Shown here: positions 10,196 through 57,007 of the stretch, one piece after another
Numbering within the stretch: position 1 is the stretch's first letter
Layout of the letters: each line of letters starts with the position of its first letter
Assembly (NCBI RefSeq): GCF_018977255.1
Contig: NW_024704742.1
Coordinates: 97,404,001 to 97,468,000 of the forward strand
Reading direction: 5' to 3'
Source of the DNA: Callorhinchus milii
Lineage: Eukaryota
Length of the DNA stretch: 64,000 bases
Made by a program: the position numbers and the translations under genes
Notes under the pieces: model-generated
The model's database searches: none
The model's input: the letters and a program-made list of their open reading frames with translations, nothing else
Told to the model about the DNA's origin: nothing

Positions 10196-10300
10196 AATAA
10201 TAATGCTTGCATTTGATATAGCGGTTTTCAAGTCTTCTAGACATCTCAAAGCGCTTCACAGAATATACTGTAAAGTGAATTGACTATATTTGTGGGCAAA
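10196..10300 (-). mobile_element. SINE 3' part, split by the L2 insertion (5' part at 12918-13010)
   Basis: ...tatatttgtgggc at 10297 resumes as aaacgcggcaaccaattgcgcacag at 12918, which reconstitutes the family consensus. Confidence 0.88.
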
Positions 10301-12917
10301 ACAACAACAACAACAAAATTACATTTGTATAGCGTATAAATTGTATAAATTACAGTCAGAGTTTCAGATCCGAGCTGGGGGAGGGTGGAAGACAGAGGGA
10401 GAAGGAAAGTGAACGAAAGCACGGTTGAAGAGGAGCATCTTGAGAGAAAGGAGGCAAGGGAGGGTGCAAGGCAGAGGGATTGGGAATGGAGTCCCAGAGG
10501 GTGGGGGGCAGAGAGGGAGAAAGCCTGCCCGCCAATGGTGGAATGAGTGTAAAACAGGACGGAGCCCTCTGAGGGGAGAGAGGGGGAAGGATGGTAGGGG
10601 GTTAGGAGGTCACAGAGATAGGGGGAGCAAGTCCATGGAGGGCTTTGACGGTGAGGATCAGTATCTTGAACTGTATCCTCTATGTGATGGGAAGCCAATG
10701 GAGTCGGGCGAGAATGGGGGTGATAAGGTCACGGAGCCTGGTGCGGGAGAGGAAATGGATTGCAGAATTCTGGATAATCTGCAGCCTATGGAGGGAGGAG
10801 TTGGGGAGGCCGACAAGCAGGGAGTTTGCATAGTCGAGCCTTGATGTTATGAAAGCTTGTATAAGGGTTTCACCAGTTTGTGGTGTGAGACAGTGGCGGA
10901 GCCGGGCGATGTTGCGGAGGTGGGGAAAGGCAGAGCGGGTCATGGCGCAGATGATAGAAAGGATAGTTGAGGGTCAAACAAGATGCCAAGGTTCCAGACT
11001 GGTTTCGTAAGGTGGAGTGTACATCATGGGTGGTGATGCTGTCAGCACCTGAAGTGTGGAGAGCCTTGGTCTTGTTGACATTCAACTGAAGAAAGTTAGA
11101 ACAGATTCTGTCAGAACAGCAGTCGAGGGTGGAGGCAGAGAGATACAGTTGGGTGTCATCCGCATACATGTGGAAGTTGACCCCTTGTCTGCTGATGATG
11201 TCGCCAAGGGGGAGCATATAGATATTGAAGAGGAGGAGACCAAGGACAGAGCCCTGAGGAACACCGCATGAGATGGTGAGGTGGCTAGAGGAGAAACTGT
11301 TTGTAGAGATGAAGTGGAGGCAGTGTGAGAGGTACAATCTGAACCAGTCAAGGACAGAGCCATGAAGGTTGAGGTGAGACGAGAGGTGGTGGATGAGGAT
11401 AGAGTTGTCGACGGTGTTGAAGGCTGCTGAGAGGCAGAGGGAGCCCTGGTCGCAGATGGACAGAATATCATTTGTCACTTTGACCAGGGAAGTTTCTGTC
11501 CTGTGGGCAGCACGGAAACCCAATTGGAGGGGTTCCTGGAGGGAGTGGCGGGAGAGGAAGGAGTGAAGCTGGGAAGCAACAACTTGTTCCAGGACCTTGG
11601 AGGGGAAAGAGAGATTGGAGACGGTTTGAGAGTAGAGATGGGTCCAAGGAGGGATTTTTAAGGATGGGAGTGATGATGGTCGTTTTAAAAGGGGTGGGAA
11701 CAGTACCAGTGGATGGGGAGAGGTTTATGATGTCTGTAAGTGGAGGGCCAAGGAGGTGGAGCTGGGAGAATAGAGAGGGGTAAAGATGGGGTCGAGGGAG
11801 CAGGTGGTTGTTTTCATGCGAGTTACAGTGGTGGTGAGAGAGGAGTGGGAGACAGGTTTGAAGCTGTGGAGGGAAGGATGGGTAGGGGCTGGGATGGGAG
11901 GGGGAGACGGAGAGGGGGTAGTGAACGGAAGGACAGAAGCAGCTGAGTGGATCCCCTCAACTTTGGATTTGAGGAAGGCCAGCATCGCCTTACAGTTGGC
12001 ATTGGAGGTGAGGATGGGCGAGGTGTGAGAGGGTGGGTGGAGGAACCGGTTGGTGATAGAGAAGAGGAGCCTGGTGTTGTCCTTGGCCTCCAAGATTATC
12101 TTGGAGTAGAATGACGATTTAGCGGAGTTGAGGGCGGAAAGGTAAGATTTGATAAAGTCCAGCCAGAGCTGCCGATGGACCGTTAAGTTTGATTTAAGCC
12201 AGGTACATTCAGCGGCATGCATCTGTTCTTCAAGGGACCAGAGGTGGCTGGTGTACCATGATGACTTACATGAATAGGAGACAGTTCGGGAAGTGAGGGG
12301 CGCAAGAGAATCGAGAGTGGAGGAGAGGGAGCTGTGAAGAGTGACCGAGGAAGATAGGTCATGCGGGAGGAAGCCCAGAGGGGAAGGAGTTCAGATGACT
12401 CCAAGGCAGCCAAGAGGGAGGGGTGGAGATTTTTTTCCAGGGGCGGTATGAGATGGAGGTGGGTTGGGTGTCAGTAGGAAGAGGGATTGAGGAGTTAAGG
12501 GAGATGAAGTGATGGTCCGAGATCGCTTTGTCAATGATGATCAGTTCCAAGATGGTGAGGTCCGGAGTGATCACCAGGTCGAGGGGATGTTCGCGGATGT
12601 GGGTGGCAGAGCGGATGTGGAGGGAGAGATTGAGGAAGGAGATAAGGGAATAGAAGTCAGCAGAAGTAGAGCAGGAGGGGGTGAAGTGAAGGTTGAAGTC
12701 GCCAAGGATGAGAAGGCGTTCGGAACAGAAGGAGAGGGAAGGAAGGAGGGTGGAGATGTCGGGGATGAAGGTGTGGGAGGGCTTGGGGAGGTGGGGGGGG
12801 GTTGATAGAATTTTGAGGGAAAGGTTGGAGAGGTGATAAAGGAAAAGGTGCTCAAAGGAGGGGAAGGTTCCAGAGGAGTAAGGGGATAGGCCGAGCGGGG
12901 ACTGGAAGATGAGAGCC
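10300..12917 (-). mobile_element. L2-clade LINE, 5'-truncated and degenerate (APE endonuclease and RT remnants)
   Basis: Minus-strand ORF pieces contain LILGDFNLH, HPLDLVIT and ISDHHFI (endonuclease), and GFRAAHRTETSLVKVTNDIL, GVPQGSVLG, HMYADDTQLY and LIQAFITSRLDYANSLL (RT and C-terminus). It has a (TTG)n 3' tail at about 10300 and several frameshifts. Confidence 0.93.
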
Positions 12918-15666
12918 AAACGCGGCAACCAATTGCGCACAGCAGTGTCCCACAAATAGTCATGCATTGAAGTGACCAATTTTATTGTTGTTTTTTCTTC
13001 AGGGATTATTAACGTGCAAGTGAATGAGTCTGAGGAAATTATAATTGTATGATTGACAATCTGATATGAGTAAGAGAGAATTGTTTTGTGGGAAGTAATA
13101 ACTGTATACACTGGGTTACTTACTTCATATAAACAAGTAAAATGTGAAACAAAGTGAAATACTATCCTTTTTTGTGTTGATCAAAGCAGAACATTCCCTG
13201 GACTCAGCTAGGAATCTGTGAATGCCAGGAATGGGTCTGAAATTACTCAAGGCTGGTGGTTATCCCTGGAGGGTTGACAGGTGTGACTATTATCTCTTGC
13301 TGTGGTTGCATCTGTGGTTGAGGCAAGGTGTAGTTTTTCTTTTCTTTCTTCAGAATATTTAACTCATTACATTTCAGTCTTTCCTCCCTGGAGCTGAGTT
13401 ACCCACACGCATTCTGTCAACTTTGTTGCGATAAGCTTTCGCATTCTTGGGCAATTTCTAAAAAAAACTATCTAGCTACATATCTCCTGTTAATAGGTTT
13501 ACAGAGCTCCAAGGCCATTACAGACACATAATCACAAGGCACTGTAAAACATACACTGGAAATGTAGCATGGAATGTGAAAAGGCTGTTCAGACCATTAA
13601 GCCTGCTCCCTTCACAGACTACTCAAAATCAACCTATCATGGTTTTCACTCTATCCTTTCTGTCTACTCAGGGGAAAGCTCAATAGATGATCTCCAAACC
13701 CCCAAGGCTATCAATAAAAGTTCCAAAATATTCTTCCAACTCCACATATCCACCATTCATCCCTGTTCTGCTCTTCACAGAAATCATTTTGTCCAAGGAG
13801 TATTTGTCATAAGCGCCCTCTTGTGAGACTTTGTGAATAATAGGTTTATCTAGGAGGTAGCTTGAGCTGTTTACAAACCAAAAGTTAAAACTCTTTTCTA
13901 GGTCACCAACTCAGAAGTTAAAAATTGGTTGATGTTAGCACAACAAAAGTAGTTGACTCCACGCCTGGCTACTGGACTTGAGTGTTAAGTTTTGGGTCCA
14001 ATCAGCCATTCTCTGATAAACAAATGGGATGGTGCAAAATTTATGTCAATAACTCAAACTGTGATGATACTATCAGATACTAAGTGACAATATGAGATGC
14101 CAATTTCATTTGATGAGTGAGTTGAATTAATTATTTAGTGGACAGATTCCATGACTGGTACTGATGTACACTATTACTTGAGCACTAATAATGGCCATTC
14201 TAGTTGAGGGTACCAACTTAGGCTAGTAATAAACACATAGATATGAATTTCTTATATTATATTCTTAAGAAATTCATTATTAAAAATAAAAGACCTTGCT
14301 GCTCTGTGTACACAATTGTGTGTGCATTGAGGTTCAGAATACGTTCATTCCAAAAAGATAGCTTGGGAATTATATTCCTTGAAGCTGGGGAAAAGCACAT
14401 ATGGATGATCTATGGATGTATCTGCGGATGTAAAGTGTACCAGAGTGACTGACATTTTTCTATTTTGAAAACTTGGTACTTGAGCCTGACAGGAAATTGG
14501 ATCGGAGCCATTCCCTTATGACGGTCAACGTCATGTATTTTCAACTACACAATATAAAGCTTTTCTTATGTGCATTGTAAAGGTTTTCTTAAATGTATTG
14601 TGCCTACACTACATTTTATGTTGGTAAATTCATGTTATGACAGTAAAGTGCCTGTGTCATACCTACAGTGTATTTTGTGTTGCTAAATTCATGTTAACAT
14701 ATTCCATAATTAATAGTGGAGCAAATACACTGCTAAAGTGCAAGCAAAAATAAGTATGTCAGCAGGAAGCTTCTTCCTGTCACAATGTATTTAACTTGTT
14801 TTTCTGTTCCTTGCCATCTGTTTCTTCGTAGCTCATATGTTATACCTGACTAAACCAATTGTAGCCATGTATCTCATCTTTCAGCCGTGCATGAGGTTAC
14901 TGATCTTTCCGCTGTGCATGAGGTTACTGCTGGTTAGCAAACACTACTGCTGCATACTAATAACATCATTTTAGTGGAGTGATACAATATCAGTCTTCAC
15001 GTTTGAGACCTATTTGTGTTCTTGTCCATTTGTGGGGGGAGGGGGAAGAACTACTGGGCAAAATAATTAAAATATATATCATATGTGGGATATTGCTTTC
15101 TGAGGTACTTTAGTTCAGAGTGGAATCTATATTCCCCAGTCCCAATCTTGCCCAGGGCTGAGGAGAGGAATTAACTAGTTGTTTTTATGTTATTATAAAG
15201 CACTAGAAAATGGTTTAGTTAAAAATTCTTGAGTGGTCCATTGAATCATCAAGATCTTTTCATGCACCTTTTCCGAATGTAGGCTAAATCCCTTAAATGG
15301 TATTAAGGGATATGGGGAGAAAGTTGGAAATTGGAATTGAAAGGATTAGTTGAGATTCAGATCAGCAATGCTCTAATTAAATGGCAGAACAGTCTTGAAG
15401 GGCTGAATGGCCTACTCCTGTTCCTATTTTCCTAAATGAATCTTCATGGGTCACATTTATGTTCCACAGATATTTTCTTTGGTCAGCTGGATGTCTAACA
15501 CATGTGGAAACCCATCACCAATCTTAAGAATATCCAAACCAAACTGAAAATTCCATGCATCCCACCTACACATGGAAAATACATAATATGTATTTATTAA
15601 TTTTTGGGGGTCAGTTGGATGTCTGATACAAACAGAAACCCATCACCACACTTTTGCTGTTTATTT

Positions 15667-33639: not shown

Positions 33640-34350
33640 CCATACGTCTAGATTATACTGTTTCCTCTATTCCTGCCAACATCTCCTGTCTTCCAACTTT
33701 GACCTCCTCAACCTCCCTGGCACAACTTTGAGTTCAGCTCAATTCCCAAGTTTCCTTTCTCCTTCTGTCTGGCCCTCACCAAGACCAGCTTCCATGTTGC
33801 CTCTAACTTATGTCCAATGCTACTGACCACATTCATTCATGCATTTGTTGCATCCCATCTGGACTTTTCTAATGGTCTTTCCCTGCTCACCTCCCTAGCT
33901 TCACCAAGATTCACAAGCTGCAACTCATCCAAAACACGGCTGACCACATTTTCACCTGCTCCAAAATCCACATGTCCATCACCCCAGTCTTTCCTCATCT
34001 ACACTGTCTCCCAATGAATAGATTTCAAGGTCCTCACTTACATATCCATCCACTCCTGGCATCTCCTTATTTCTCTGATCTTCTCCTATCCCAATCCTAC
34101 CCTTGCACCCTCCACTCAGTTAACTCAGACTTGCTATGCATCCCCTGCCCTCTCTATGCCACTCTCTGGATCTCTGGATCTCCCTCCCTCTATCCTCCCT
34201 TATTGACCCCTCCCCTTTCTGTCTTTATCCTTCCTCAAATTCTGCGTCTTGCATGTGTCTGTGGCCATCCCCTTCTGCCCTGTCCGGCGTCCAACCCTGT
34301 CACTGTAAAGCACTCAGAGAAATTACCCTACATAAATGAAGTTCTTTGTT
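33640..34350 (+). mobile_element. Degenerate L2 3' fragment
   Basis: Encodes FIHAFVASHLDFSNGL and ITPVFPHLHCLP, with a pyrimidine-rich L2 3' region. Confidence 0.75.
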
Positions 34351-35129
34351 CTTGCTGGATATGAAATGATATCTCTTTCATCAGCTGAGTGAATGGGAAG
34401 CCAGTTCTCTAGTTTGTGTTTCTAAGCACATTGGCCTGGGCTGAGGAACATTCTGTATAATTAAAACGCAAAATTAAAGCAAAGCTATGCAAACAGTGAC
34501 CAACCTTTCAAAAATTATCCCTCAAGATTTCTTGGTCAGTCATTTGGACCAAACCTACAGAGAGCACTTCTGAGTGAAACCCTAATGAACCTGAACCACC
34601 TACATTCATGAGGCAGTGTTGAAAACTTAAAGAGGTCCCGGCTGCCTTTACCACTTTAATTCTCTTGCAGATTCTGTCACTAAGTTTTACTATTTTTTTT
34701 AACTAGGCATTACAGCTAGTCTGGATCTTGAAGGGTTGGTTTATACTGTACTTTTCCCTTTTCCGAAGGAAATTGAGATTAAAATCACTGTTTCACTTGT
34801 TCTAAGACTGTAAGAAAAGAATGAAAACAAACAATTCATATCCTAAAGCTCCCTGTTGCAACTAATGTCATACTAGTATTCGGTGAGTCTCACATTTGTT
34901 TTATTGGGTGGGGGAGGGGGGCGGCAGGGGGTGAAAACGGCAGCAGATCCAAGTAGTTTCTTTTCCCTGTGACATTGACAAATGTCTCAGCAGGACCCCA
35001 CTATTGGAAAGGTTTGAGATCTTTGCCTTAAGTCAATAGTGATTTATCCTGCTATTGAACTTGTAACAAGTGCTGGTATGAATGAAGCTCATTAAGCAAT
35101 GCCACCTCATTCACATCTCCAGGGTTCAA

Positions 35130-41200: not shown

Positions 41201-43894
41201 AGTGGTAACTGTTCAAGTGTAATTTGTTTTATATTGCCATGGAAGAGCTGCGATGAATGTTTATGTCCCTTTGAAATTGCACATTTGAGTTTTATCCTTC
41301 GTTGTGGCCAAAGCTGATTATTGTCAGACATGAACATCACTGAGAAACACACAGGGAGAAATGATGGATAATTATACAATAAATTGTGGATGAAATAGAC
41401 TACCTGCCAACCTTTAATACAGTACAGGTTTTTTCAATTCAAAAAATGAAATTGGGTTTCCTAATTGTCGCTCTCTTGGTTTGAATTCTTTATATCTTCT
41501 TAAATGAGGTGGTGTTCCCTCTTAATATGCTTTGTGCCAAATTTCAATACAAACATACCTTGCTCACTCTGAAGGACTGCTGTAATTTACTTGTCTTTCT
41601 TCCTTAGAAGAGTGGCTGGTTATGTTTTTGCATGGCTGATTTACATACCGTAATTAAAATACCACATCCTATTATCCAGTGGGTCATTCTATGTAGGAGA
41701 ATTCATAAATTACTTGTTTAAAAAAATCAGCTGAATGTAGACAAAGCAGGAAATCTAGTTGACAGCCTCTGCACTGAATATGTAATGCAAAGGAAGTGAA
41801 TTTTCCACTAATTTATCTTCTTGTGGAGTGTGTGATGTGATAGCAGGATAGATTGATGCACAATATTGGTTCACAACCATTTTACCCTCATAATTGCTAA
41901 AAAGATGCTAAGATTTAACTGTTCATTTTAATGGTTTGTTTTTAGTATGCCTAATTGTTGTAAGTGACACATCAGGAACTACCACTTAACTGTAACATCA
42001 CTTGGGTGGCATTGTAGTGTTTGTCAAACCTTAAACAGATATTGTTGAATGCAATTTAAAATGGTAAGAACAAAGAATTAGCTCACACCTCACTCGCTCC
42101 TAGAAAATCCACTATTGGCAATAATTTTGATTTCGTTTGATTCAGATAATTAGACATTCACTAGTATTTATTGGATCAGGCTTTCAGGCACAGCTTTCCA
42201 AAACTGTTAAAAGAAAAGATGGCATTATATGCACAAGGTGACAGCCCAGCTCAGTTGGTAACATCCGGCCTTGGAGTCAGAAGGCTGACGTATTGAGCTC
42301 CTAGCGTAAAATGACACTTCAGTGCTGTGCTAGGGAAGAGCTGCATTGGCAGAGAGGTGCCATTCTTCAGAAGAGATGTTAAATCAAGGTCCCAGTCTCC
42401 TGTTTAGATGGATGCTTAAGATCCCATGGAACTATTCAAAAAGACAAGGGAGTTTCTTGGCTAATGATCTTCCGGATTGGTCATTCAATTTCTGGCTCTT
42501 TCGGCAGTAATCTCAGGCCAGGGTTCAGATAATTATTATGGAAACCTTGCGCTTTTCTCTCACACATTTCATAGTCATCCGAACCACATAATGAGAATAC
42601 TACCCTGCAAGGACTTTTATTTTTGCTTTCATTTTAGTAGGAGCAAGTTGCCTCTATTGGAAATCGGCTCATAAGAGTTCATTGCAAGCCACAGTTTCTT
42701 GAAATAGTTTCAAAGTTTTTAAAAATGTATTTAAAAATTTGACCTGTGGATTCACAGTTATGATTCTGAAAGTGAATACCAGCATACAGTAAGTTTAAAA
42801 AAATAATGGATAAATACCAGTTATAAAGGAATGTAATAGCTTAGTTGATCTTCAGGAGTACATTAAGATTTGACCTATATTTTTACTGATGGATATGTCA
42901 AATATGTCTAATAATTTTTAGTTTTTTATTCTTTTGTTCATTTTATACGTGATATTTGTTCCTTAACATTTTACGTCTAACTCATTCTGTAATGAAGTTG
43001 TCATTTGGTTCTCTGTTCCACGGATCTTAATCATATAAGTTGCCATCTTAATTCCGCTAATATTTTGAAAGGTGTATAACTCATAAAAGCATTAGCTGAT
43101 AAAAATGTGTATGTCAACAGAGAACAATTAATACATTTTCCCCCAAGATTCAGCGAATAATTGAACTGCCTAGTATTGTACTGAAGTACACAGGCCACAA
43201 AGCACACAAGTTCTATCCTGGTTAGCTGAAATTTGTGGGAAAGATGGTGGTACATTACAATTCACTAGGGGCCTCTGGTATATAGAGGGGGAAACAATCA
43301 GCCTGACTTCCTGCTGATGATTGATGATGTGACCCACACTGGAAGTTTGAATTTTGAGCAAGGAGAGGATCTGGATGCAGTTTAGTGAAATAGCTGAATA
43401 ATACTCAGTGTGCAGAGACACATGTGAAGATTTGCCACTTTGGTCAAAGTGTAGAATCTGTAGACTTGGCGCCAGCATGTCAGGGAAATCAGTGTCTTGC
43501 CAATGGTATGGTATAAATGCGAAATGAATGACCGTTTGTTTATACAATTATTTAAAATAGAAATAGCCATCTTCTGGGGTCTAGGTTTATTCTATTAATG
43601 TAGCATTTTAGAACATCTAGAATTTGGTAAATTGTTGAATTCAATCTTAACTTTGGTTTCTGTAGTCCTTTAAAGAACTGAAAGAAAACGGGCTTGAAAA
43701 TTACGGCTGTATTTGAATTTGCTAAGTTCTGAAATGGTACATTAAATAGAGTAAATCTAGACCTAGGTGGAATGATATACTCGTGTCTTCATTTTTGTCA
43801 CCTGACCTCGTCAATATTTGGTTTCTGGTAAATTGTATTTTGTTTTGATAATTCTTTTTGAATTGTCTGACATTTCTGTTTATCTGTGTCACAG

Positions 43895-44053
43895 AACTTT
43901 CTGTTCCGTCCGAACTTCATTAATGATCTGAAAATGTTTGCCGGAAGGTACTGCTATGATATTCATGTTCTGATGACCATCTCACTAAATGAAGGGGGTG
44001 AACCGAGTAGGCAGGTTGCCATCTATACTGACAACGATGATCTGTCCAACAGA
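43895..44053 (+). CDS. PRUNE2: PRUNE2 internal coding exon (part of the DHHA2 region; equivalent to human exon 7 as I recall the numbering)
   Basis: Acceptor ...tttatctgtgtcacag| and donor AGA|gtaagt, 159 nt, phase 0/0. It encodes NFLFRPNFINDLKMFAGRYCYDIHVLMTISLNEGGEPSRQVAIYTDNDDLSNR, matching recalled human PRUNE2 NCLFHSNITSDLKAFTDKFGFDVLIL...QPRRQIAVYSENMELCSQ. It joins in frame to the next exon. Confidence 0.92.
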
Positions 44054-44956
44054 GTAAGTCATTTAAACTTGCCATTTTAATTTGACTGGTTAAGTTAATA
44101 AAATTTATATTTATTAATACCAATGATTAGAAAGAAGCTATTTACAATAGAACCTCGTCATAATCATTGTGTAAGCAATTTGGGTGTAGACTCAAAATCA
44201 ACTTATCCCAAAATCAATTCAGACAGTATTTTTAAGCGCTGATAGAGCCTGGCGCCTTTCTGGGTAATTGATCAGTGAATGCTGAAGCATGACTAGCAAT
44301 CGTGCCCTTTTATAGCACTCTTTGGCATTGTTATAATGGACCCCACTGTATACCATTTTTCTTTGCAGGTGATAGTAAATGTGTGCTTATAAGGAGAGCT
44401 TATAAGGAGAATGGAATACTGTCTGGAATGGTCTGTCATAGCATCGTCAAATGTAGAATAATATCCATTATATTGCAAGATACCAACCAATAGTTTTTCA
44501 GCCTAACAGACACCCTGCTTCCCTTCCCCCCCTCCCCCAAGATATTTTTTGGTTTATTGTATCTCAGATGTGAAGAGCTAATAACTAAGTAGGCCCAGAA
44601 CGTTTTGTTCCAAGATGGGTAATCAACTGATTTGAGTAATCTGCAATGTTAATCCAATATAAATTTACAGTTATAGCTGCTCTTGCCAAATCAGTTTGTG
44701 TATATTTCAGGGTTCAAACTTCTGTGTTTTCCTTTTCACCCATTCTAAAGACATTGTTCAGACTTCTAGACTCGACCACAAAAATGACAATGGCGTATCA
44801 ATACACCTGTTGGTGTTTTATACCAGATCCTTTTTAAACTTGTTATCCAGTGAGATACTGTATCAACTGAACTGAGAACAACAAAATTGCCATCTTACGT
44901 TTCACCAACCAAAATGCCATTGTAAAAATTCTACTTATGGTAATAGTGATTGGTAC

Positions 44957-45791
44957 AACAACAAAAATACAAAATTACATTTGTACAGCGCCTTTCACGT
45001 CGGGAGGACGTCCCAGTCAGGGATTAGGACCCGGTCGGGGTGGGTTGGATGGGGTAGGATCAGGGAGCGTGGAGGGCAGAGAGGGTAGGAGGGTGGTTGA
45101 AGGCATGGTCGAAGAGTTTTGAGGCGTGCCTTGAAGGAAGCAAAAGAGGGAACAAGGCAAAGGGAATGTGGGATGGAGTTCCAGAGGGTGGGGGCGGAGA
45201 GGCTGAAGGCCTGACATCTGATGGTGTGGCAGGCCGGGCGGGGGACATGGAGCTGGCCGGAGCCTGCTGAGTGGAGGGAGCGGACAGATTAATAGGGGAT
45301 TAGCAGATCAGAGAGGTAGGAGGCAGCAAGGCCATGGAGGACCTTGAAGATGAGGACAAGAATTTTGAACTCAATCCTCTGAAGGATGGGGAGCCAGTGG
45401 AACCGGGCGAGGGAGAGTGTGATAGGGTCACGGAGCCTGGGGCAGGAGAGGATACGAGCTGCAGAATTCTGGATGATCTGCAGCTTGTCGGAGGGAAGAG
45501 TTGGGAAGGCCGACAAGCATGGCGTTGGCGTAGTTGAGCCTGGATGTAATGAAGGCATGTGTGAGGGTTCTGGCGGCCTGAGGGGTTAGGCAGTGACGGA
45601 GTTGAGCAATGTTGCAGAGATGGGGGAAGGCAGAGCAGGTCATAGCACGGATGTCGGGGAGAAAGGACAGTTGAGGGTCGAACAAGATGCTCAGGTTCCT
45701 GACTGGCTTGGTGAGGTGGAGTGTGCATCTGTGGATGCTGATGTTGCCAGTGCCTGAGTGCGGAGGCGCTGGTACGAGCCAATCAGAATGG
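44957..45791 (-). mobile_element. L2 LINE 3' fragment
   Basis: Encodes LTHAFITSRLNYANAMLVGLP, LQIIQNSAARIL and HWLPILQRIEFKIL. The 3' tail has gggacgtcctcccgacgtgaaaggcgctgtacaaatgtaattttg followed by a TTG-type repeat. Similar to the 10300-12917 copy. Confidence 0.92.
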
Positions 45792-45798
45792 TACAGAT

Positions 45799-46110
45799 TA
45801 ATAATAATCCTTGCATTTGATATAGCGCTTTTCACGTCGGGAGGACGTCCCAAAGCGCTTCACAGAACACGCTGTAAAGTGAATTGACTGTATATTTGTG
45901 GGCGAACGCGGCAGCCAATTGCGCACAGCAATGTCCCACAAACAGTCGTAGATTGAAAATGACCAATTTAATTATTGTTTTTTTTTGGAGGGATTATTAT
46001 TAGGCGTGTGGAGTAAGGAAACTTGCCCAAGGTTTCGCCCTGCCTGGAATTGAACTCAGGTCTCTCACTTGCAAAGCGAGTGCTCTAACCACTGAGCTAC
46101 AGGACTCCAC
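45799..46110 (-). mobile_element. Full-length tRNA-derived SINE with L2-type 3' tail (young family; resembles elephant-shark SINE2-type elements)
   Basis: The minus-strand head GTGGAGTCCTGTAGCTCAGTGGTTAGAGCACTCGCTTTGCAAGTGAGAGACCTGAGTTCAATTCC carries Pol III A and B boxes. The tail shares gggacgtcctcccgacgtgaaa with the adjacent L2 and ends in (TTA)n. Confidence 0.92.
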
Positions 46111-46225
46111 GGTACTCCATTGGTACAAACATGTCCTGCTTTTTCTTTGCTTGATATGTGATATCAACTGTGCAGTTCTAGATGCAGTGAAAAAAAAACT
46201 ACTGATATTATTGTTCTTTGAACAG

Positions 46226-49200
46226 GTATGTTGTACATTAGAAGAGTGCCAAAATCCATGTCTCCAACTGGAGCCAATAGAGCATGGATTTCAAGAGATC
46301 CGAGCATATCAGCAAGGGAGCTCCTCAGTCTCTCAGAAACAGATTGTTCCACTGATAAAAGACTGTATTCACAGGCGACAGCAAGGATTGTCGATGAACA
46401 GGAGAACTTCGTCCACAGAAGCTGTCAATGGTAGTGCTCCGGTTTCGGAAGGATCATCTGGTGTTCTGGATTTATCTGGTCCTGATGTGGATTCACAGAA
46501 CACTGAGTATATGGGTGAAAATTTACTGGATAACTCACAAGTTTTAAATGCTTCCTTACAGGCTCATGGTGATGTTAACGTTGATCTTATGAGCCCAGAC
46601 AGTGGACTAGCCACTATCCGAAGCAACCGTTCCTCCAAAGAGAGCTCAGTTTTCCTAAGTGATGATAGTCCCATTCGAGAGGCAATTGGACCATCATCCA
46701 GCCTCTTGCAGGGCTACGATATGTTTAGTTCTTTGCCTGAAGATGAGACAGTGGAAGATGGAGTTGCTCCAATTGATAATGCAAATAGGTTTGATTTGTT
46801 TGGTCTAGATCTAGTGCATAGCAATAACATTAAGACCGATTCTTTGGAAGATAATCAAGATTTTTTGGTGAATGATGGAATACCAAAGGCAGAATTAGCC
46901 CCTCAGAAAGATAATGATGTGGAAGCAGTTCCATTAAGTGATCATGTTTCCATGGATTTAATGAAGGAAACCACAATGTCAACCGAGCTGGTGAAGGCAG
47001 AGGATGATAAGATTTACAATCAAGATCGTATTGGAGATGAACCAGTAAAAGAGCAAGTGAGATCCCAAATTTCCTACACAACTGATGGAATTGGAATGGT
47101 CATTGTGGATAAGAAGGTTCCTCCAACACCCATGAACAGTCTTGTAGAAGGGTCACCTCTAGATGAGGGACCTCCTAACATTTTTGCAGAAGATGTTATA
47201 GAGAAAATGAATGAAATTGGCAATGTTGGCTCACACCAAGCAGATTGTATGTATCTCAGGCAAAAGAACGAATATGAATCTACCAAGACCATGTCAGAGG
47301 AAAGCGATGGCTGGACATCACATCAGAATGAACTGAGTAACACGGTTACTCAAGATTCTGATTTATGGATGAAGTTTGACCAGGGATCCAGTCAACTAAA
47401 TTTCAAAGACTATGACAGGTGGAGTGAATTTGATCTACAGCCAAATGTATCAACAGAAATAAGTGCTAGTGATATATGGAATTCAATTGAGCAAATCTCT
47501 ACCCAGGCCTTTGGTGATGAACCAGCCACGTCAGACGAATTAGACAAAACCCCATCAGTCTCTCATGATTTGTGGAACATCTCTGGGAAAGAAACTGTTC
47601 TGTCAGGGTTCCATAAATTTGATGAATATTACAAGTTTCAAAACGAAATTCCATCAGTGTCTGAGAGTTCAGATGTAGCCGATAAACAAGAGGAAGGGAA
47701 TGAACAGCAATATGAAACTACTTTTAATGTAGGGAAACTTCCTGTGTCAAAGGAATATTCAGATCAACCACGTTTGAGGGATGAAGCTGTAAAAGGAGCT
47801 ATCCAGCCTATTAAAATCCTCCCAGAGGTGTCAGACAATGCTGAACAGAGAATCCAAAGTTCAGACCATGAAAATCCAGTATGGACGAAACCGATTTTAG
47901 AGACGTATTTACATCCTTCTTATAATTTGAGTGACCCTAAACAGGAAGTGACTTTGAATTCAGATATATTGAGTGAACCTAAAAATGATGATGGCCAACC
48001 AGTTGCAGAAAATGCAGATGATTGGGCTACATTTGACCAGGAAGCTAACAGTTCTGCATCAGACAGTGATGATCCATTATCTGAAAAAGCCACCCAAAAA
48101 ACTGTGTGCACCTATAATGTATGTGGTTCAAGACAGGAGAAGAACAAAGGCTTTGAAAATGTAAATGTTTGGAATGAATCCACACAGGCAGATAGTCAAC
48201 TTACTGCACAAGGTCTTGAAACGTGCAATACTTGTCAACATGATATTAAATATTCACCATCTGACCATGTGGAAAAGCAGAATACACATGCAGACTTGGT
48301 TACGGAAGCAAGGAATGATTCTGTATGGGATATTACCCAGCCAGCATTTAAAATGCAAACCCTGGAAGTACAACAAGAACATGATCACAGTCGGACCATA
48401 TTTGAAGCTGTGGATTCAGCAGATGCACAGGAACACAAGCCACCATCTCCACATTTGTCTGATGTGTGGAATGAATTTGAAAAAAATAGATATTCATCTT
48501 CTGAAAGTTTAGATGCTTGGGGTGCTCCTGTCAAAACGTTCAGTCAGCAAAGTGTAGAGTTACCAGTTAAACTGAATAATTCTGACCAAGAAGCTAGATA
48601 TTCAGCAACTCAAAATGTGTATGTGTGGAATAAGGAACAAGAGAATCATCAGCTTCAAGAAGGGAAGCAAAATCCATGGAATATTTTTGAGCAGGATAGT
48701 GGCCAGTCAACATTTGAAAGCCAAGCCTGGTACAATCAGATGCAAGAGATCAGTCAGGCAGATACAGATCATCTTGAGATGTACCATGCATCTGACATTG
48801 GAAAACAATTTGGAAATGATAAAAGTCAGGAGAAAGAAAAAGATCTCACACAGAATAATAAGGAAACAACATTAGACCTTTATGATACACACTGTGAAGC
48901 TGAAGAGCACAGTCATTTGTCAAGCCAACATGACTACAGGCATCATGAATCAGAATATCATGTGAGACCTATTGAACATCCAGATGAACCTTTAGAAAAA
49001 GTTTTGAAGCATCCTGATCTGTGGAGTGATTCTGAATATGAGTTTATCCATTCACCTGGTGATGTTCTTATTTCCAATAAATTCGAACATAAGTTAAGTC
49101 AGTCAAATGTGCCAAATCCTGACGGACAGACAACAGGTGAGTCTAACCAGTCTTTTACTGAAAATTACTCTGTTTGGACTGAGTCTTGGCAGGAAGTTCC

Positions 49201-52200
49201 CCATTTGCTTTCTACTACCAGTGATGATTGTAAGGAATCTAAACGGGAGTTAATTGAACCAGATGTTCCTGATGTAATAACTGACTATCACCAATACACC
49301 CACCAGACTTTCTCTGCAATTCCTGATTTATGGAATAAATCCAATCAAACATTTATTGCTTCAATTGCTGAAAACACATCTCTTTTGAATGATAGCTACT
49401 CTGCTTCAAATAGTCCAGGTATATGGAATGAGGCAGAGAGACAAGGTTCTAAAAGTGCAGATAGGTGGACTGATGTAAAAGAAAACAATAAGGAAACTAT
49501 GACTAATCAACCTGATCTAATGATTGTATCTGAGCCAAAGTTTCACCTGTCTTTCTCAGCTGGTGCTAATGCATGGACAGAATCTGAACATACATTTCTT
49601 TACCCAGATGCAGAAAGCCTTGGTGCATATAATGATTCCATGCGGCAGATAGCCCACTCGCCCATAGTCGATGCTGATCCAGGGCATGTACATGTACAGA
49701 GAGTTTCGACTCACCCAGGACAAGATTTTGCTTTAACACCAGATGAAACATTTCATAAAGATGAAGATTTATCCGAGCTATCCGGTTCTGTTAAGTTTGA
49801 ATCCATGCAAACCTGGCAAACCTTTGGAATTCCTGTCCCTTGCATACATTTGCAGCAAGGAGTTACTGACCTCTTTGGGAAAAGTCCAATTTCACACAGT
49901 AACTATGAAAAGGGATTCACTCATTCTGACTTAGGTGAATTTAGGGTCCATAGAGCACATGAGGTTAATCAGTCAGCTTTAGAATATCTTGATCCCTGGA
50001 ACCCAGTGGAAGGGGTTACTGCTGAATCTATTTCTGTGGAGAGCAAGTCATCTCATGTAGAAGACATTGCATTGATGGATAAAAAACAGATCCAATGTTC
50101 AGGTTTTGATAATATGTCAAACATTATCAGAACAGATGAGGTGGAGGCAACAAATTTGGAGTATACAGACTCAATTTCATCAAACAAGCAAACGACAAAC
50201 ATGTACAGCCCAAATGTAGGAGTAACCAAAAACGAAATCCCTTTTTCAAAGTTTTCATCTCCCGATGAATATTTTACATCTACTGCACCCGACAGAATCT
50301 TAGCTAGCCAATCAACTGGTTCTCAGGGCTCAAACGTGATGGAGTACTTCTCTGTATCAGATAAAAATCTTTTGCCAATCGAACCACTAAAAGAATTTTC
50401 ACCAGTGCAAACAGAGGATGAGCCCTTGTGCGGTACTATTTCATTTGCAGAAACTACCACACATAAGTGTTTCCCTACTCACATAATGCCTGGTAAGGCA
50501 GAATTATCCTATGAAAATGTAGAACCAGTAAATGCTGCTTCTGATTATTTTTATGAGATAGATGGACTGAAAGCTTGGCCAAAGGCGATTGAACACAATA
50601 ACCTATTTCTGCCAGCAGATGATGCTGCAGCACTTCATAACTCTAATGAATCAAACCAAAGAAGCATAGAAACAGAACATGTGGAAAATAAGCCTAGCGA
50701 AAATTCGTGGGTTTCATTTGGAAATTTAGACAGCAACATTAGTATCAATATGATGTCCTCCAGCCCGCCCACCTGTGCCCAGAAATCAGACTTTTGGGAG
50801 GCTTTCAGTGCTCAGAAGTGTAATTTAACTCATGATGTGGATCATTCTCATTACAAGGCCATAGAAAACTTCAGCCCTGACTCAGAATGCATAACTAAAA
50901 CAGATGGGCAGGACGAAGATGGAGAAAATGTACTAAGCACGGCAAATACAAATCTCCATAGCACACAAAGTGATACCAATTTGGCGAAAAGGTTTGATAA
51001 ACAGTCCAGCTTCTTGCTAACAGATATTTCGTCACTTACTTCTCTAATTTCCTCCACAGAGATTGATAGCAGCTCACTAGAAGTTGAATATGTGGATAAA
51101 AGTGACAGCAACCTAGCCTCAAAGATCTTTGAACACGGAAGCAATGAGGACAATAAATTGATTTCAGATGAGGATGAGAGGATGGGAGAAATGGATTATA
51201 TAGTTGTAGCTGGAAGAGAAAGGATGTCTGGAGCAGACACAAATGGACAGGACAAAGAAAATATGGTCATGGAAGATATAAATGCAAGAATTTTGAACAT
51301 TGACTATCAAGGACAAACTTTGTCAACCTCTCCTTCAATCACTGTTCAACCAGAGCTCAGTGACAATGAAAGCAGTGCCTTGGAGAGTTCTTCCACTGAA
51401 TATCTTCCTGCAAACAAAATCTTAGATGACCCTTTTATGAGAACTAATTGCCAGGATGAAGGGAAAATAAATTTAGATGAGAATGCCAGTATTGAGGATG
51501 AATTCAATTATCAAGTCAATATTGAGGAGGAAATTGATGAGAAAGCCAGCATTGAGGATGAATTCAATGATCAAGTCAATATTGAGGAGGAAATTGATGA
51601 GGAAGCCAGTACTGGGGATGAATTCAATGAGGAAATCAATATCCAGGATGAAATCAATGAGAAAGCTGGCATCGAGGATAAATTCAACAAGCAGGACAAT
51701 ATTCAGGAGAAAATCGATGAGAAAGCTGATATCAAGGATGAATTCAATGAGGAAATCAATATAGAGGACAAGATTGATGTGGAAGCCAATATCAAGGATG
51801 AATTCAAGGAGCAAGGCAAGATTCAGGAAGAATTTGATGAAAAAGCCAACATTGAAGATGAATTCAATATCAAGGACCCAATTGATGAGAATGTTAGTAT
51901 AGAAGACGAAGTTAATGAACAAGCCAATATTCAGGAGAAAATCGATGAGAAAGCTGATATCAAGGATGAATTCAATGAGGAAATCAATATAGAGGACAAG
52001 ATTGATGTGAAAGCCAGTATCAAGGATGAATTCAATGAGCAAAGCAAGATTCAGGAGGAATTTGATGAAAAAGCCAACATTAAAGATGAATTCAATATCA
52101 AGGACACAATTGATGAGAATGTTAGTATAGAAGATGAATTTAATGAACAAGCCAATATTCAGGAGAAAATCAATGAGAAAGTTGATATCAAGGATGAATT

Positions 52201-55179
52201 CAATGAGGAAATCAATATAGAGGACAAGATTGATGTGGAAGCCAGTATCACGGATGAATTCAATGAGCAAGGCAAGATTCAGGAAGAATTTGATGAAAAA
52301 GCCAACATTGAAGATGAATTCAATATCAAGGACACAATTGATGAGAATGTTAGTATAGAAGATGAATTTAATGAACAAGCCAATATTCAGGAGAAAATCG
52401 ATGAGAAAGCTGATATCAAGGATGAATTCAATGAGGAAATCAATATAGAGGACAAGATTGATGTGGAAGCCAGTATCAAGGATGAATTCAGTGAACAAGG
52501 CAAGATTCAGGCGGAATTTGATGAAAAAGCCAACATTGAAGATGAATTCAATATCAAGGACACAATTGATGAGAATGTTAGTATAGAAGACGAATTTAAT
52601 GAACAAGCCAATATTCAGGAGAAAATCGATGAGAAAGCCAGCGTTGAGGATGAATTCAACAAGCGAGGCAATTTTCAAGCGAAAATCGATGACAAATCCA
52701 GTATTGACAATGAATTCAACAAGCAAAGCAAAATTCAGGAGGAAATCAATGAGAAAGCAAACATAGAGGACAAATTCAATGAGGGAATCAATATTGAGGA
52801 TACAATTGATGAGAATGCCAGTATAGTAGATGAATTTAATGAACAAGACAAGATTGAGGAAGAAATTGATGAGAAAAACAGTATCGAGGATGAATTTGAT
52901 GAGGAAATCAATATCCAAGGCAACATTGATGTAGAAACCAATATCGAAGATGAATTCAACAAGCAAGGCAAGGTTCAGTTGGATATTGATGAAAAAAACA
53001 ATCTAGAGGACAAATTCAATGATCAAGTTAATATCCAAGACAAAATCAGTGAGAAAACCAGGATTGGGGAAGAATTCAATGAGCAAATTAATACTCAGGA
53101 GGAAATTGATGAGAAAACCAGTGTCGAGGATGAGTTTAATGAGGATGGTAATATTCAGGAGGAAATCTATGAGATAGCCAGCATCGAGGATGAATTCAGG
53201 GAGGAAATCAATATTCAGGAGGAAATTGATGACAAAGCAAGTATTGAGGATGAATTCAACGAGCAAGGTAATATTCAGGAGAAAATCAATGAAAAAGCCA
53301 ACTTAGAGAATGAATTCAATGAGGAAATCAATATTCAGGAGGAAATTGATGACAAAGCAAGTATTGAGGATGAATTCAACGAGCAAGGTAATATTCAGGA
53401 GAAAATCAATGAAAAAGCCAACTTAGAGAATGAATTCAATGAGGAAATCAATATTCAGGAGGAAATTGATGAGAAAGCCAACATTGAGGATGAATTCAAT
53501 GAGGAATTCAATATCAAGGACACAATTAATGAGACATTAACTATTGAAGACAAATTCAATGATCAAGGCAAGATTCAGGAGGAAATCAATGAGAAAGCCA
53601 GTATTGGGGATGATTTCAAAGAGCAAGTTAATATTCAGGATAAAATTGGTAAGGTAGCCAGTATCGAGGACAAATCCAATGATCAAGTTAATATTCCGGA
53701 CGACATCTATGAGAAAACCTACCTAGAGGATGAAATCATTGAGGGAATCGATATCCAGGATGAAATCAATGAGAAAGCCAGCATCGAGGAAGAATTTGAC
53801 AAGCAAGGCAATATTCAGGAGGAAATGAATGAGAAAGCCAGTATCAAGGATGAATTCAGAGAAGAAATCAATAATCAGGAGGAAATTGAAGAGAGAACCA
53901 GTATCAAGCATGAATTCAACAAGCAAGGCAAGACTCAGGAAGAAATCAATGAGGAAGCCAGCATTGAGGATGAATTCAATGAGGAAATCAATATCGAGGA
54001 CACAATTGATGAAAATGCCAGTATAGAAGATGAATTTAATGAACAAGGCAAGATTCAAGAAGAAATTGATGAGAAAGCCAGTATTGAGGATGAATTCAAT
54101 GAGCAAGGCAATATCCAGGAAAATAATGATGAGAATGCCATTATAGAAGATGAATTCAACAAGCAGGGCAAGTTTCAGGAGGAAATCGATGAGAAAGCCA
54201 ACATAGAGAATGAATTCAATGAGGAAATCAATATCCAGGACAAAATTCATATGGAAGCGAGTATCAAGTATGAATTCAATGAGCATGGCAATATTCAGGA
54301 GAATATCAATGAGAAAGCCAGCATTGATGACAAATTCAATGGGCAAGTTAATATCCGGGAAGAAATTGATGAGAAAGCCAACATCCAGGAAGAATTCAAT
54401 GAGCAAATTAATATTCAGGAGGAAATTGATGAGGAAACCAGTGTCGAGGATGAGTTTAATGAGGAAGGTAATATTCAGGAGGAAATCTATGAGATAGCCA
54501 GCATCGAGGATGAATTCAGTGACGAAATCAATATTCAGGACGAAATTGATGACAAAGCCAGTATAGAAGACCAATTCAACGAACAAGACAATATCCAGGA
54601 AGAAACCAGTATGAAGAATGAATTCAATGAGGAAATTGATAAGAAAGACAGTTTCAAGGACAATTTTAATGAGAAGGCTCACAGTGAAGACAGATCAGAT
54701 AGAAAGTTTAATTCTAAGGATGAACTAGTTGAGAGAGCTAGTATTGAGGAAGGAGACACCCAAAGCTGGACAGTGCTAAATGCAAATGAGCCAGTTGACA
54801 TCTTGTCCGAAAGTAGTATAACAGAAACAAGTGGATCTGAATCAGAGCATTCAGTCAAAGAACTGGAAGCAATAAGTTCACTTGCTGATGGAAATGCTGC
54901 TGCAAATGAAACTGAAGAAACTAAGGATGTCCAAAATATGATACATGATGTATCTTTAGAAATGGAAAGCATGGTGTGGTCAAATGAGATGGTATCTATA
55001 GATGGATCTGAGAGGATTATGCCGGAGTTGCCAGTGAGGGAGGTCCACCTTTTATCTAACACTGTAGAAGGTGAAAAGATTCTTAACCTTTCGCTACCAG
55101 GTCTGACAGATACTTGTACTTCAACGGAACTACAAGAAATTAACTCAACTGAACTAAGACTTTCAACTGAAGATGTACG
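46226..55179 (+). CDS. PRUNE2: PRUNE2/BMCC1 giant internal coding exon (8,954 nt, about 2,984 codons; acidic, largely low-complexity region)
   Basis: Branch-like CTGAT (46202), pyrimidine tract, aacag| acceptor at 46225, and donor CG|gtaaga at 55179/55180. The reading frame is uninterrupted. PRUNE2 signature peptides are present: CCTLEECQNPCLQLEP, RTSSTEAVNGSAP, NVDLMSPDSGLATIRSNRSSKESSVFLSDDSP, KKVPPTPMNSLVEGSP, MDYIVV, QSWTVL, LSTEDV. Confidence 0.93.
51473..54750 (+). repeat. Coding tandem array: 30-nt/60-nt units (consensus roughly EEIDEKASIE-DEFNEQGNIQ) with higher-order 228-nt and 120-nt repeats
   Basis: 60-nt periodicity is directly visible (GAATTCAA in most units). 228-nt units start at 51707, 51935, 52163 and 52391. 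53221-53340 is identical to 53341-53460. Confidence 0.97.
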
Positions 55180-56271
55180 GTAAGATATTCATACTCCATT
55201 CAAATTCAACAGTTTCTCCCAGAATAGAAACTTATATTTATATCTGAATATGTTTCACTCTGGATAGTAATTGTTTTTCATGCTTACACATCTGACTAAA
55301 ATGTTATTCAGATCAGTTTTGCTGGGCAAAATGAGGGATCAATTAGAATCCGAGGGAACATTCCTTACCTTAGTGTACGAATGGAAAATGTCTGCTCATC
55401 AACAGGTGTAAAGAAACCAAAGATGGAATGAGCAACTCAAAACGAATGTAGAGTACTGTGTGGTTGGAATTGGGCTATCCTTGTTTCCTCAGCAGCAGAG
55501 TATGCAATCTATTCTGTTCACCAAAGTTAGCAGGATATTTGTTCCTCCAATGTTTTCTATAGCTGTGAACCTGACTGAGAGAGGATGACAGTGATGAGAG
55601 ACCAGAAGCATGAGATTTGAGGACAATGAGTAATAAGAGGGTGGTTTGGAGTAAATGTGGATTTGCAGTGTGGAAGAGAACTGCTTGCAGAAAGGTGGTA
55701 TTGAAGAATTGAAAAGCAAACACAATTTATTTCAAAAGTCGGCCAAATTTTAAGCAGATGTACAAGTTTAAAAGGCTGCAGTTCATGCTGTATGGCAGTA
55801 AGCAGCAGTAATTTCATGAAAGGCTTTGTACTAAGGTTTTATACTTTAACCTACTTAGTTTGTGTTTGAATATAAAAACTGATATGGGAAGCACATTATG
55901 CTATGGTGTTTTAGATTTCATGAGTACAGGCAGAAAGAAGTTACAAAACAGAAGTTACAATACTAACTGTAGAGTCGGTAAACGATGCAATTTTATAGGA
56001 TAGTTCCTTCCTATTGTGTGACTGGTGTTCTTGAGAGACTTTCTCTAGGTTTCTGAAGCAAATGTAGTCTGTCACTAGTATCTTGAACAGGCTATATGTA
56101 GACATGCTTAGTTTGCTAATTGGCCCGAGAATATTGAGGAGTGGTCTTGAGTGAAAGTAAAAGTAAAAGCTGACTAATCACCCAAATCTATAAGTTGTTT
56201 TAAGAAGTTTTAATAAATGCGACAGTAATTCCAGACCAAAGTGAAATTTTGTTGATATTAAATAATAAATA

Positions 56272-56474
56272 GATAGATAGATTTCTTATTGCAAAAGAGA
56301 TTAAGGGATATGGGGATAAGGCAGGTTAGGTTATTAGCTGGAGTTAGATTAGAAGATCAGCCATGATTGAAAGGCGGGGCAGGCTTGAAGCGCCGAATGG
56401 CCTATTCCTGCTCCTACATGTTATGTTATGTTATGTTATGTTATGTTATGTTATGTTATGTTATGTTATGTTAT
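56272..56474 (+). mobile_element. CR1 LINE 3' end with expanded (TTATG)n tail
   Basis: attaagggatatgggg...gatcagccatgattgaa...gaatggcctattcctgctcct, followed by about 11 TTATG units. A similar 3' end lies at 15295-15432. Confidence 0.75.
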
Positions 56475-57007
56475 AAACCACACACTCAAGTATAGAGAAA
56501 AGAAAGGAAACAAGAAGTACAGGAAATAAACTATACATTTACAGTATGCATGTCATCGTGAAACCATATCCTGCTCTTCTCCTGAGTTCTCGACTTTTGT
56601 TTGGGTATGACTGCATAATGTCCTAGACTGACTGCTCTCATAGCCACAAGAAAGATATCAAAAGTATGTATTTCTCATGGCTTATATCCAGCTGAGGAAT
56701 AATGACATGGACCATTATTGCTCTAAGGGAGGGCAAGGTGGGGGGGAGGGGCAGAGAAGCATCTAGTACACAGGTACATTCCCAGGTCTGATACACTAGG
56801 TTCAATTTTCATAGAAATACCCTGCCAAAAAGGTCAGGTTTTTAATTATTATTTTTGTTTGTTCTTGTGTTGGCAGTTCAGGAATGTTAAATTTTTTGAA
56901 TGTTCAGGAGCAGGCTCCTCTGGGATCCACACCAACCACGCAAGATTCGCTTCACACCGTCTATAAAGAAATAAAAGGCTTGCGAATTGAAGAATATACA
57001 AGGTTAG

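Follow-up and report, generated by a model that had tools for sequence, protein, structure and literature searches.

The window analysed here, a 64,000-nucleotide (nt) stretch of the Callorhinchus milii genome (contig NW_024704742.1, positions 97,404,001 to 97,468,000), contains part of the gene PRUNE2. Its giant internal coding exon harbors a tandem array that encodes 1,092 strongly acidic residues, which an original prediction, made from the letters alone, had taken for a repeat domain inserted in frame into the protein.

The PRUNE2 locus

Protein comparison identifies the gene in the window as C. milii PRUNE2, in agreement with the earlier assignment: the first 420 residues of the giant exon are 100% identical to C. 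milii PRUNE2 models, 54-60% identical to shark and ray proteins and about 42% identical to those of tetrapods (among the matches listed, at least 120 of 435). The RefSeq isoforms X1-X5 (XP_042189598.1 and others) and UniRef entry A0A4W3I8X4 are the same protein, array included. A 100% identical model (P0001) carries the precomputed domains PF02833, PF12496, PF13716 and PF00650, and the full-length protein has the layout of a PRUNE2/BMCC1 orthologue, with an N-terminal DHHA2 domain and C-terminal BNIP2 and CRAL-TRIO (BCH) domains. The BCH exons lie outside the window; for all exons that it does not cover, database models were used. Within the window, a single open reading frame (ORF) on the plus strand (46004-55183, 3,059 amino acids) covers the array. 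The gene features are:

43893..44053, plus strand: upstream exon of PRUNE2 in the DHHA2 region, which splices onto the giant exon (RefSeq model placed by tblastn; joint 44053>46226, GT..AG, in sequencing runs X1 and X4)
46226..55179, plus strand: giant internal coding exon of PRUNE2, 8,954 nt, mostly disordered by prediction (ORF; acceptor and donor sequences; RefSeq/UniRef match; composition)
49137..51059, plus strand: exitron (in-frame alternative intron within the giant exon), 1,923 nt or 641 codons, GT..AG (absent from RefSeq models; run X1 contig ends)
51191..51208, plus strand: MDYIVV anchor, upstream of the array (motif position, alignment)
54761..54778, plus strand: QSWTVL anchor, downstream of the array (motif position, alignment)
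56884..57002 (end approximate), plus strand: beginning of coding in the short RefSeq isoform X6, as its alternative first coding exon; X6 is without giant exon and array (RefSeq model)

Contigs of run X1 end at 49136 and 51056, precisely at the exitron, and a third contig bridges it as the retained form; the joint itself is not among the alignment rows shown, and splicing was read from these contig breaks and the RefSeq models. Excision of the exitron leaves the array intact, and takes out 641 residues that are alignable to shark coding sequence. The first exon of isoform X6 is similar in kind to those of the mammalian short BCH-only isoforms (PMC3327665).

Measured from RTSST to GMDI and without the exitron, the linker between the terminal domains comprises 2,291 residues in C. 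milii; 12 shark and ray models have 1,928-2,025, and the median of 88 measurable proteins is 2,378. After the first block, its identity to the sawshark linker is just 34-48% per 200-residue block; global pairwise alignments misplace the array and were used only for the blocks upstream of it. Given this low identity, and a human-chimp ratio of nonsynonymous to synonymous substitution rates (dN/dS) of 1.38 for PRUNE2 exon 8 (PMC2655648), the linker is a fast-evolving region. Upstream of the array (46226-51472, plus strand), it contains 26 tryptophans, mostly in acidic D-x-W (14 matches) or W-x-x-F (8 matches) contexts; D/E-x-W counts are alike in shark, alligator and chicken linkers, and these candidates may be real binding motifs of the linker. 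The runs differ from the window at six single bases in the non-repeat part of the exon (47200, 47789, 48181, 49098, 50587 and 51323), with four residue-changing and two silent differences.

Architecture of the acidic array

The array and its younger internal duplications are located as follows:

51473..54750, plus strand: acidic tandem array, 1,092 amino acids; regular part 51497-54598 (101 decads and four 6-residue units), degenerate tail to 54750 (Tandem Repeats Finder, composition, segmentation)
51707..52618, plus strand: four copies of a 228-nt (76-residue) higher-order unit, 96-97% identical, with private differences in each (self-comparison)
53068..54568, plus strand: distal part with younger duplications, at an offset of 120 nt (97% over 180 nt, from 53200) and of 1,320 nt (96%, 53068 vs 54388) (self-comparison)

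Most of what had been read from the letters holds. The repeat is indeed acidic and in frame, with 23.6% E, 14.8% I, 11.8% N, 11.7% D and 8.9% K (D+E 35%), 5.8% S+T, 0.2% Pro and no Trp. Its net charge is -280, or -0.26 per residue, and it is roughly twice as acidic as the remainder of the giant exon. Tandem Repeats Finder reports 53 copies of period 60 at 51476-54605, with 70% matches. Segmentation resolves the alternating 30-nt units, originally given as xEIDEKASIE and DEFNEQGNIQ, into 57 A decads (EEIDEKASIE type, the last five degenerate) and 49 B decads (DEFNEQGNIQ type); what remains are five six-residue units, namely one at the start and four DEFNIK units that each are 12 nt short and match the proposed recurrent deletion, and three unassigned residues. 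The A and B consensus decads have 21 of 30 nt in common, and the mean identity among 47 distinct 60-nt units is 74% (one duplicate of 48 removed). The I/F spacing of 6,4,6,4 proved correct as a general pattern, but half of the B decads are spaced 4,2,4, as their position 7 is I, V or F (24 of 49).

The 228-nt copies, which differ from each other by 7-9 nt, were not part of the original description, and neither was the exitron upstream of the array. All of the best 200 self-match offsets are divisible by 3. Its 30-, 60- and 228-nt units and 12-nt deletions are all multiples of 3, which makes it a coding minisatellite, situated in a long exon that encodes disorder, the latter by prediction. The array contains 36 EcoRI sites, and 442 of its 1,092 codons are one change away from a stop. 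Two minus-strand ORFs (51473-53002 and 53723-54694) were dismissed as shadows of the repeat.

The empty site in sharks and rays

When the array is excluded, the C. milii flanks align nearly gap-free to all 12 shark and ray species compared, in which the array is missing at the site; a truncated model from Pristis and a duplicate isoform from Amblyraja were not used. The anchors MDYIVV (51191) and QSWTVL (54761) are 1,190 residues apart in C. milii, just as originally stated, whereas their equivalents are separated by about 100 residues in turtle and about 103 in sawshark (hand count). That sharks, rays and bony vertebrates are devoid of the array is supported. In Heterodontus, the aligned site reads GEIYLDEKTTGD, while the array starts with KINLDENAS and the A unit features IDEKAS. 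The short LDEK-type stretch of sharks and rays looks like a seed of the array, and in protein-level comparison a local duplication of such a stretch would be its simplest source. We found no further chimaera among the 120 listed of 435 matches, nor among shorter proteins (one unrelated match) or longer ones (six matches), and hence the array is not datable within the holocephalans.

Transcription and copy number

Reads were aligned over 42500-51472, and coverage inside the array was inferred from shared words. No run was recorded as RNA; runs X1 and X4, which come from two studies, were taken as such from the splice joint of 44053 to 46226 with its GT..AG ends. Given this joint, and zero cover of run X1 in three intron bins where the DNA-like run X9 is continuous, these runs behave as RNA. 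Run X2, with low, patchy cover and no such joint in the rows shown, was left out. One contig of run X1 begins at 51056 and extends 67 letters past the array start. Moreover, the share of sampled words of 46200-55300 is 0.91 in run X1, compared to 0.92 in runs X9-X12; because the array accounts for 32% of the distinct 31-mers of this region, most array words must be present in run X1, and by this word share the array appears to be transcribed.

In the long models compared (RefSeq isoforms X1, X3 and X5, two older RefSeq models and UniRef models), the array is whole or nearly whole, while the short RefSeq isoforms X6 and X7 miss the whole giant exon. In the older models, one 228-nt copy of the distal part is missing and two residues are different; isoform X5 lacks one proximal 228-nt copy, and none of the 86 registers of that gap offers GT-AG, GC-AG or AT-AC ends. 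The cause of this copy-number difference is uncertain: a shorter allele and a collapse artefact, of assembly or alignment, both fit.

It is extremely improbable that the array as such is an artefact, be it a misassembly or a segment that is spliced out of transcripts. The disagreement of database models by one 228-nt copy and the end of the aligned reads at 51472 leave some room for this explanation, but the array is found in models of two annotation generations, each 228-nt copy has its private differences, and the gap of isoform X5 has no canonical splice ends. Likewise, run X1 could not exceed a word share of about 0.68 without the array, and one of its contigs reaches into the array. On misassembly and splicing-out, which had been named as refuting conditions, the evidence favors the array, with an uncertain copy number.

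No published description of the array was found in the literature on Callorhinchus, PRUNE2 and tandem repeats, where subscription journals and supplements were outside the search. In the accessible text of PMC13370473, nothing was found on it; an exitron preprint (10.64898/2026.10.06.756961) does not have PRUNE2 in its main text, and its accessible part has nothing on the array. The array is real and already annotated in automatic models, yet apparently not described in the literature.

Selection among repeat units

Conversion between units breaks the assumption of a tree, and the following values of omega (the nonsynonymous-to-synonymous rate ratio) and branch figures are therefore rough. IQ-TREE codon models were used for likelihood differences only, and omega was obtained from simulations. 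On the inferred history, about 9-17 stops are expected, but the array has none; in a tree-free comparison, one-step stop codons were seen in 0 of 9 cases, as opposed to 70 of 144 for one-step missense codons (p 0.004). The original observation that stops are missing despite many near-stop codons thus reflects actual avoidance. Since the BCH domain lies downstream in the same frame, however, this is uninformative on the array's own role: selection does keep the frame, as had been proposed, but a function of the array is not required for it.

Codon models reject an omega of 1, with twice the log-likelihood difference at 13-17 in three models and at 6.5 in GY+F3X4. Across mutation models, the simulations place omega among units at 0.59-0.73, and at 0.75-0.81 on terminal branches, where the deviation from neutrality is not significant (p 0.05-0.11). 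Single-unit variants comprise 38 nonsynonymous changes and one synonymous change, compared to about 33 to 6 in neutral simulations, and 11 of 13 variable codons among the four 228-nt copies are amino-acid changes. D/E swaps are about doubled relative to neutrality. Amino-acid constraint on the units is weak, and the pattern suits units that are redundant and retain their bulk character loosely.

Predicted structure and homology searches

With a fraction of charged residues of 0.45 and a mean hydropathy of 0.356, compared to a boundary of 0.505, the array falls far on the disordered side of the charge-hydropathy plot and is predicted to be an intrinsically disordered, expanded polyanion. AlphaFold models from self-derived alignments gave mean predicted local distance difference test (pLDDT) scores of 45.8 for 100 residues, with low-confidence helices, and of 44.3 for 160 residues, with no elements. 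A confident repeat fold was found in neither of these two models (pLDDT < 50, no strands, shallow alignments), and the regular decad fold originally considered finds no support in them. A decad coiled coil has a hydrophobic spacing of 3-4-3. This candidate was rejected, as the array is spaced 4-2-4 or 6-4 and has no hydropathy signal at periods 3.5-3.6; its strongest period is 2.0, and its core residues all fall on odd positions. LIR (LC3-interacting region), SUMO-interacting, clathrin-box, NPF and EF-hand patterns do not occur in the array.

Pfam has no family over the array at E-values up to 1. A profile of the repeat found 90 matches among 1.84 billion representatives, of which only two are strong (E < 1e-30), both from C. 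milii; we saw no true relative in the next ten of the other 88, which are unrelated repeats from assorted proteins. In the ESM Atlas, the best score was 0.83, a low recognition. Among 177,635 sequences in the PDB, eight match, all of them OspA variants (best E 8.7e-8). The two alignments examined involve OspA with repeated hairpins, and the score is a sum of weak matches that recur and are subject to large bias corrections. The likeness to engineered OspA (PDB 2fkj, 2af5) is local, around an F-N-E-x-G turn, and convergent rather than homologous: OspA has a charge-balanced hairpin of 23 residues with a fixed Gly and globular caps, whereas the unit of the array has 20 residues and is very acidic. 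This Gly is seen in one third of the B decads (16 of 49) and in none of the 52 A units, with Ile or Val as frequent replacements, so that a conserved turn Gly is not found. An Asx residue starts the putative turn in most units.

Other tandem arrays in the PRUNE2 linker

A diagonal scan for internal repeats in 123 PRUNE2 proteins, a biased sample consisting mostly of birds, found them in 19: four from C. milii, nine with 160-1,200 repeat residues, and six with old dispersed duplications (sharks, turtles). The independent linker expansions are P0022, P0210-P0212, P0075, P0093, P0029, P0078 and P0020. All but P0020 come from the following lineages:

Geotrypetes (caecilian): 80-residue unit, about 15 copies
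manatee, elephant and tenrec (afrotherians): 56-residue unit, about 3 to about 11 copies by species
ruff and godwit (sandpipers): 109-residue unit (Calidris)
two lizards: 62-residue unit

These units are unrelated to that of C. milii and are found elsewhere in the linker. They share with it the gene and linker, in-frame tandem growth and an acidic, polar character, but are longer, Ser/Thr-rich and mostly with Trp, at a D+E of about 0.2 compared to 0.35 in C. milii. On the sequence level, at least five vertebrate lineages, including C. milii, have acquired tandem arrays in the PRUNE2 linker that are unrelated to each other. The lineage-specificity that had been proposed consequently applies to the sequence of the repeat, but not to array growth in this linker, with unrelated arrays in at least four other named lineages.

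Discussion

We think that the array is probably a tolerated acidic, disordered spacer in the expansion-prone linker of PRUNE2. In this scenario, a local stretch of ten codons with an LDEK-like core would have been duplicated inside the linker between the DHH/DHHA2 part and the BCH domain, the duplicated decads would have diverged into A and B types, and unequal crossing-over together with conversion would have multiplied them. The result would be an expanded polyanionic coil that provides the long isoform with extra reach between its ends, perhaps tens of nanometres by polymer scaling. Selection would retain the frame for the downstream BCH domain and, loosely, acidity and regularly spaced I/F residues, but neither a fold nor a specific site. 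Long internal exons are described to acquire disordered segments through repeat expansion (PMC12457776), and the array resembles these cases in its frame-preserving growth within a very long disorder-encoding exon; it is set apart by its unusual size (3.3 kb), its hierarchy and its strong acidity, and PRUNE2 is not part of the main text of that study. As a spacer, it would be an ordinary though large case of repeat growth in a disordered exon, and the PRUNE2 linker arrays would offer a natural series for the effects of length, charge and aromatic-motif count. Of the original wording, 'spacer' is thus upheld, while 'domain' was an overstatement.

Several observations weigh against a merely tolerated spacer. 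The constraint is nonzero and position-dependent, with an omega of 0.41-0.50 on internal branches; 18 of 21 synonymous variants are present in at least four units, compared to only 23 of 85 nonsynonymous ones; and the four core I/F columns take 11% of amino-acid changes, where neutral simulations yield 16-20% (p up to 0.035), but in a base-matched site test these columns show no significant effect (p 0.28). In addition, the C. milii unit, unlike those of the other lineages, is short, lacks Trp, has 0.2% Pro and about twice the acidity of the remaining exon, and the low AlphaFold confidence is weak evidence, as the inputs were only 11 and 26 self-derived rows. The chimaera lineage might have made a working module from a chance duplication, either a 50-fold ladder of DxF plus Ile or a conditional beta-hairpin polyanion, which we consider rather doubtful. 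The ladder would bind clustered endocytic adaptors with avidity, and the ribbon would zip up into beta-hairpins upon charge screening by cations or a basic partner. With single-unit changes free but spreading variants filtered, this would be a functional repeat domain caught at birth and, if AP-2 binding or conditional folding proved true, a rare and datable new repeat domain from local sequence in a slowly evolving vertebrate.

More specific functions are less probable than the tolerated spacer. It is unlikely that about 43 DxF motifs at a 20-residue spacing bind clustered AP-2 alpha-appendages by avidity and so reinforce a link to the endocytic coat. Human PRUNE2 binds AP-2 (PMC3765211), and the alpha-appendage's top site is bound with avidity by multiple DxF in unstructured regions (PMC1540706). 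The array has 43 DxF, while four other species have 4-8 in their entire linker. It resembles the motif domains of Eps15, AP180 and CVAK90 (PMC1540706) as an acidic, unstructured chain with many DxF in an AP-2-binding protein. In contrast to these, its motifs are candidates, with 0 DPF/DPW, 0 WxxF and 1 FxDxF as higher-affinity patterns, and the human AP-2-binding fragment, residues 575-904, lies far upstream of the array site (PMC3765211). DxF, moreover, is a three-letter pattern that would multiply automatically from one seed unit, and while the Phe column ranks with the most constrained (ratio 0.23), the constraint on Ile at position 13 and on Asn at position 8 equals it.

A functional polyanion, in which acidity is selected and the charge of about -280 acts as a buffer for Ca2+, Mg2+ or polyamines or attracts basic partners such as MAP6-like proteins, is decidedly unlikely. 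Its net charge would suit this role, and D/E swaps occur at about twice their neutral share, but E/D-to-K/R changes are not depleted and the array has no EF-hand pattern. Free Ca2+ is low in the cytosol. PRUNE2 is cytoplasmic and vesicular (PMC3765211), and its MAP6-binding isoforms are short ones (PMC3327665), while the short isoform of C. milii is without the array. The class of acidic Ca-binding or biomineral proteins (EF-hand, or like secretory calcium-binding phosphoproteins, SCPP) was rejected on similar grounds, as the array is internal to a cytoplasmic protein (PMC3765211), has no EF-hand pattern and, with an S+T of 5.8%, is not a phospho-acidic mineral protein. Finally, we regard it as very unlikely that charge screening folds the array into a meander of beta-hairpins or a cross-beta ribbon, in which N-E-Q-G and D-E-K-A form the turns and one face carries the I/F ladders. 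The hydropathy period of 2.0, the Asx residues at the turns and the greater constraint on core columns in simulations (though not in the base-matched test) speak for it, as do the matches to engineered OspA, the only ones of solved structure, whose middle part is a single-layer beta-sheet (PMC9523718). However, three positions have the same parity by chance in 1 of 4 cases, the turn Gly is mostly absent, the OspA score is an accumulation of weak matches to charge-balanced hairpins, and AlphaFold predicts low-confidence helix or coil and zero strands.

Other features of the window

Apart from PRUNE2, the window contains several repeats. A decayed element of the long interspersed nuclear element (LINE) type extends over several frames of the minus strand (10246-13180), with a YADD reverse-transcriptase motif in the ORF 10870-11724, and a further LINE-like fragment is found on the plus strand (33873-34364). 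Just before the giant exon, the intron contains very high-copy interspersed repeats (44900-46110), to which thousands of contigs align, and a perfect (ATGTT)n microsatellite of 11.4 copies is located at 56418-56474.

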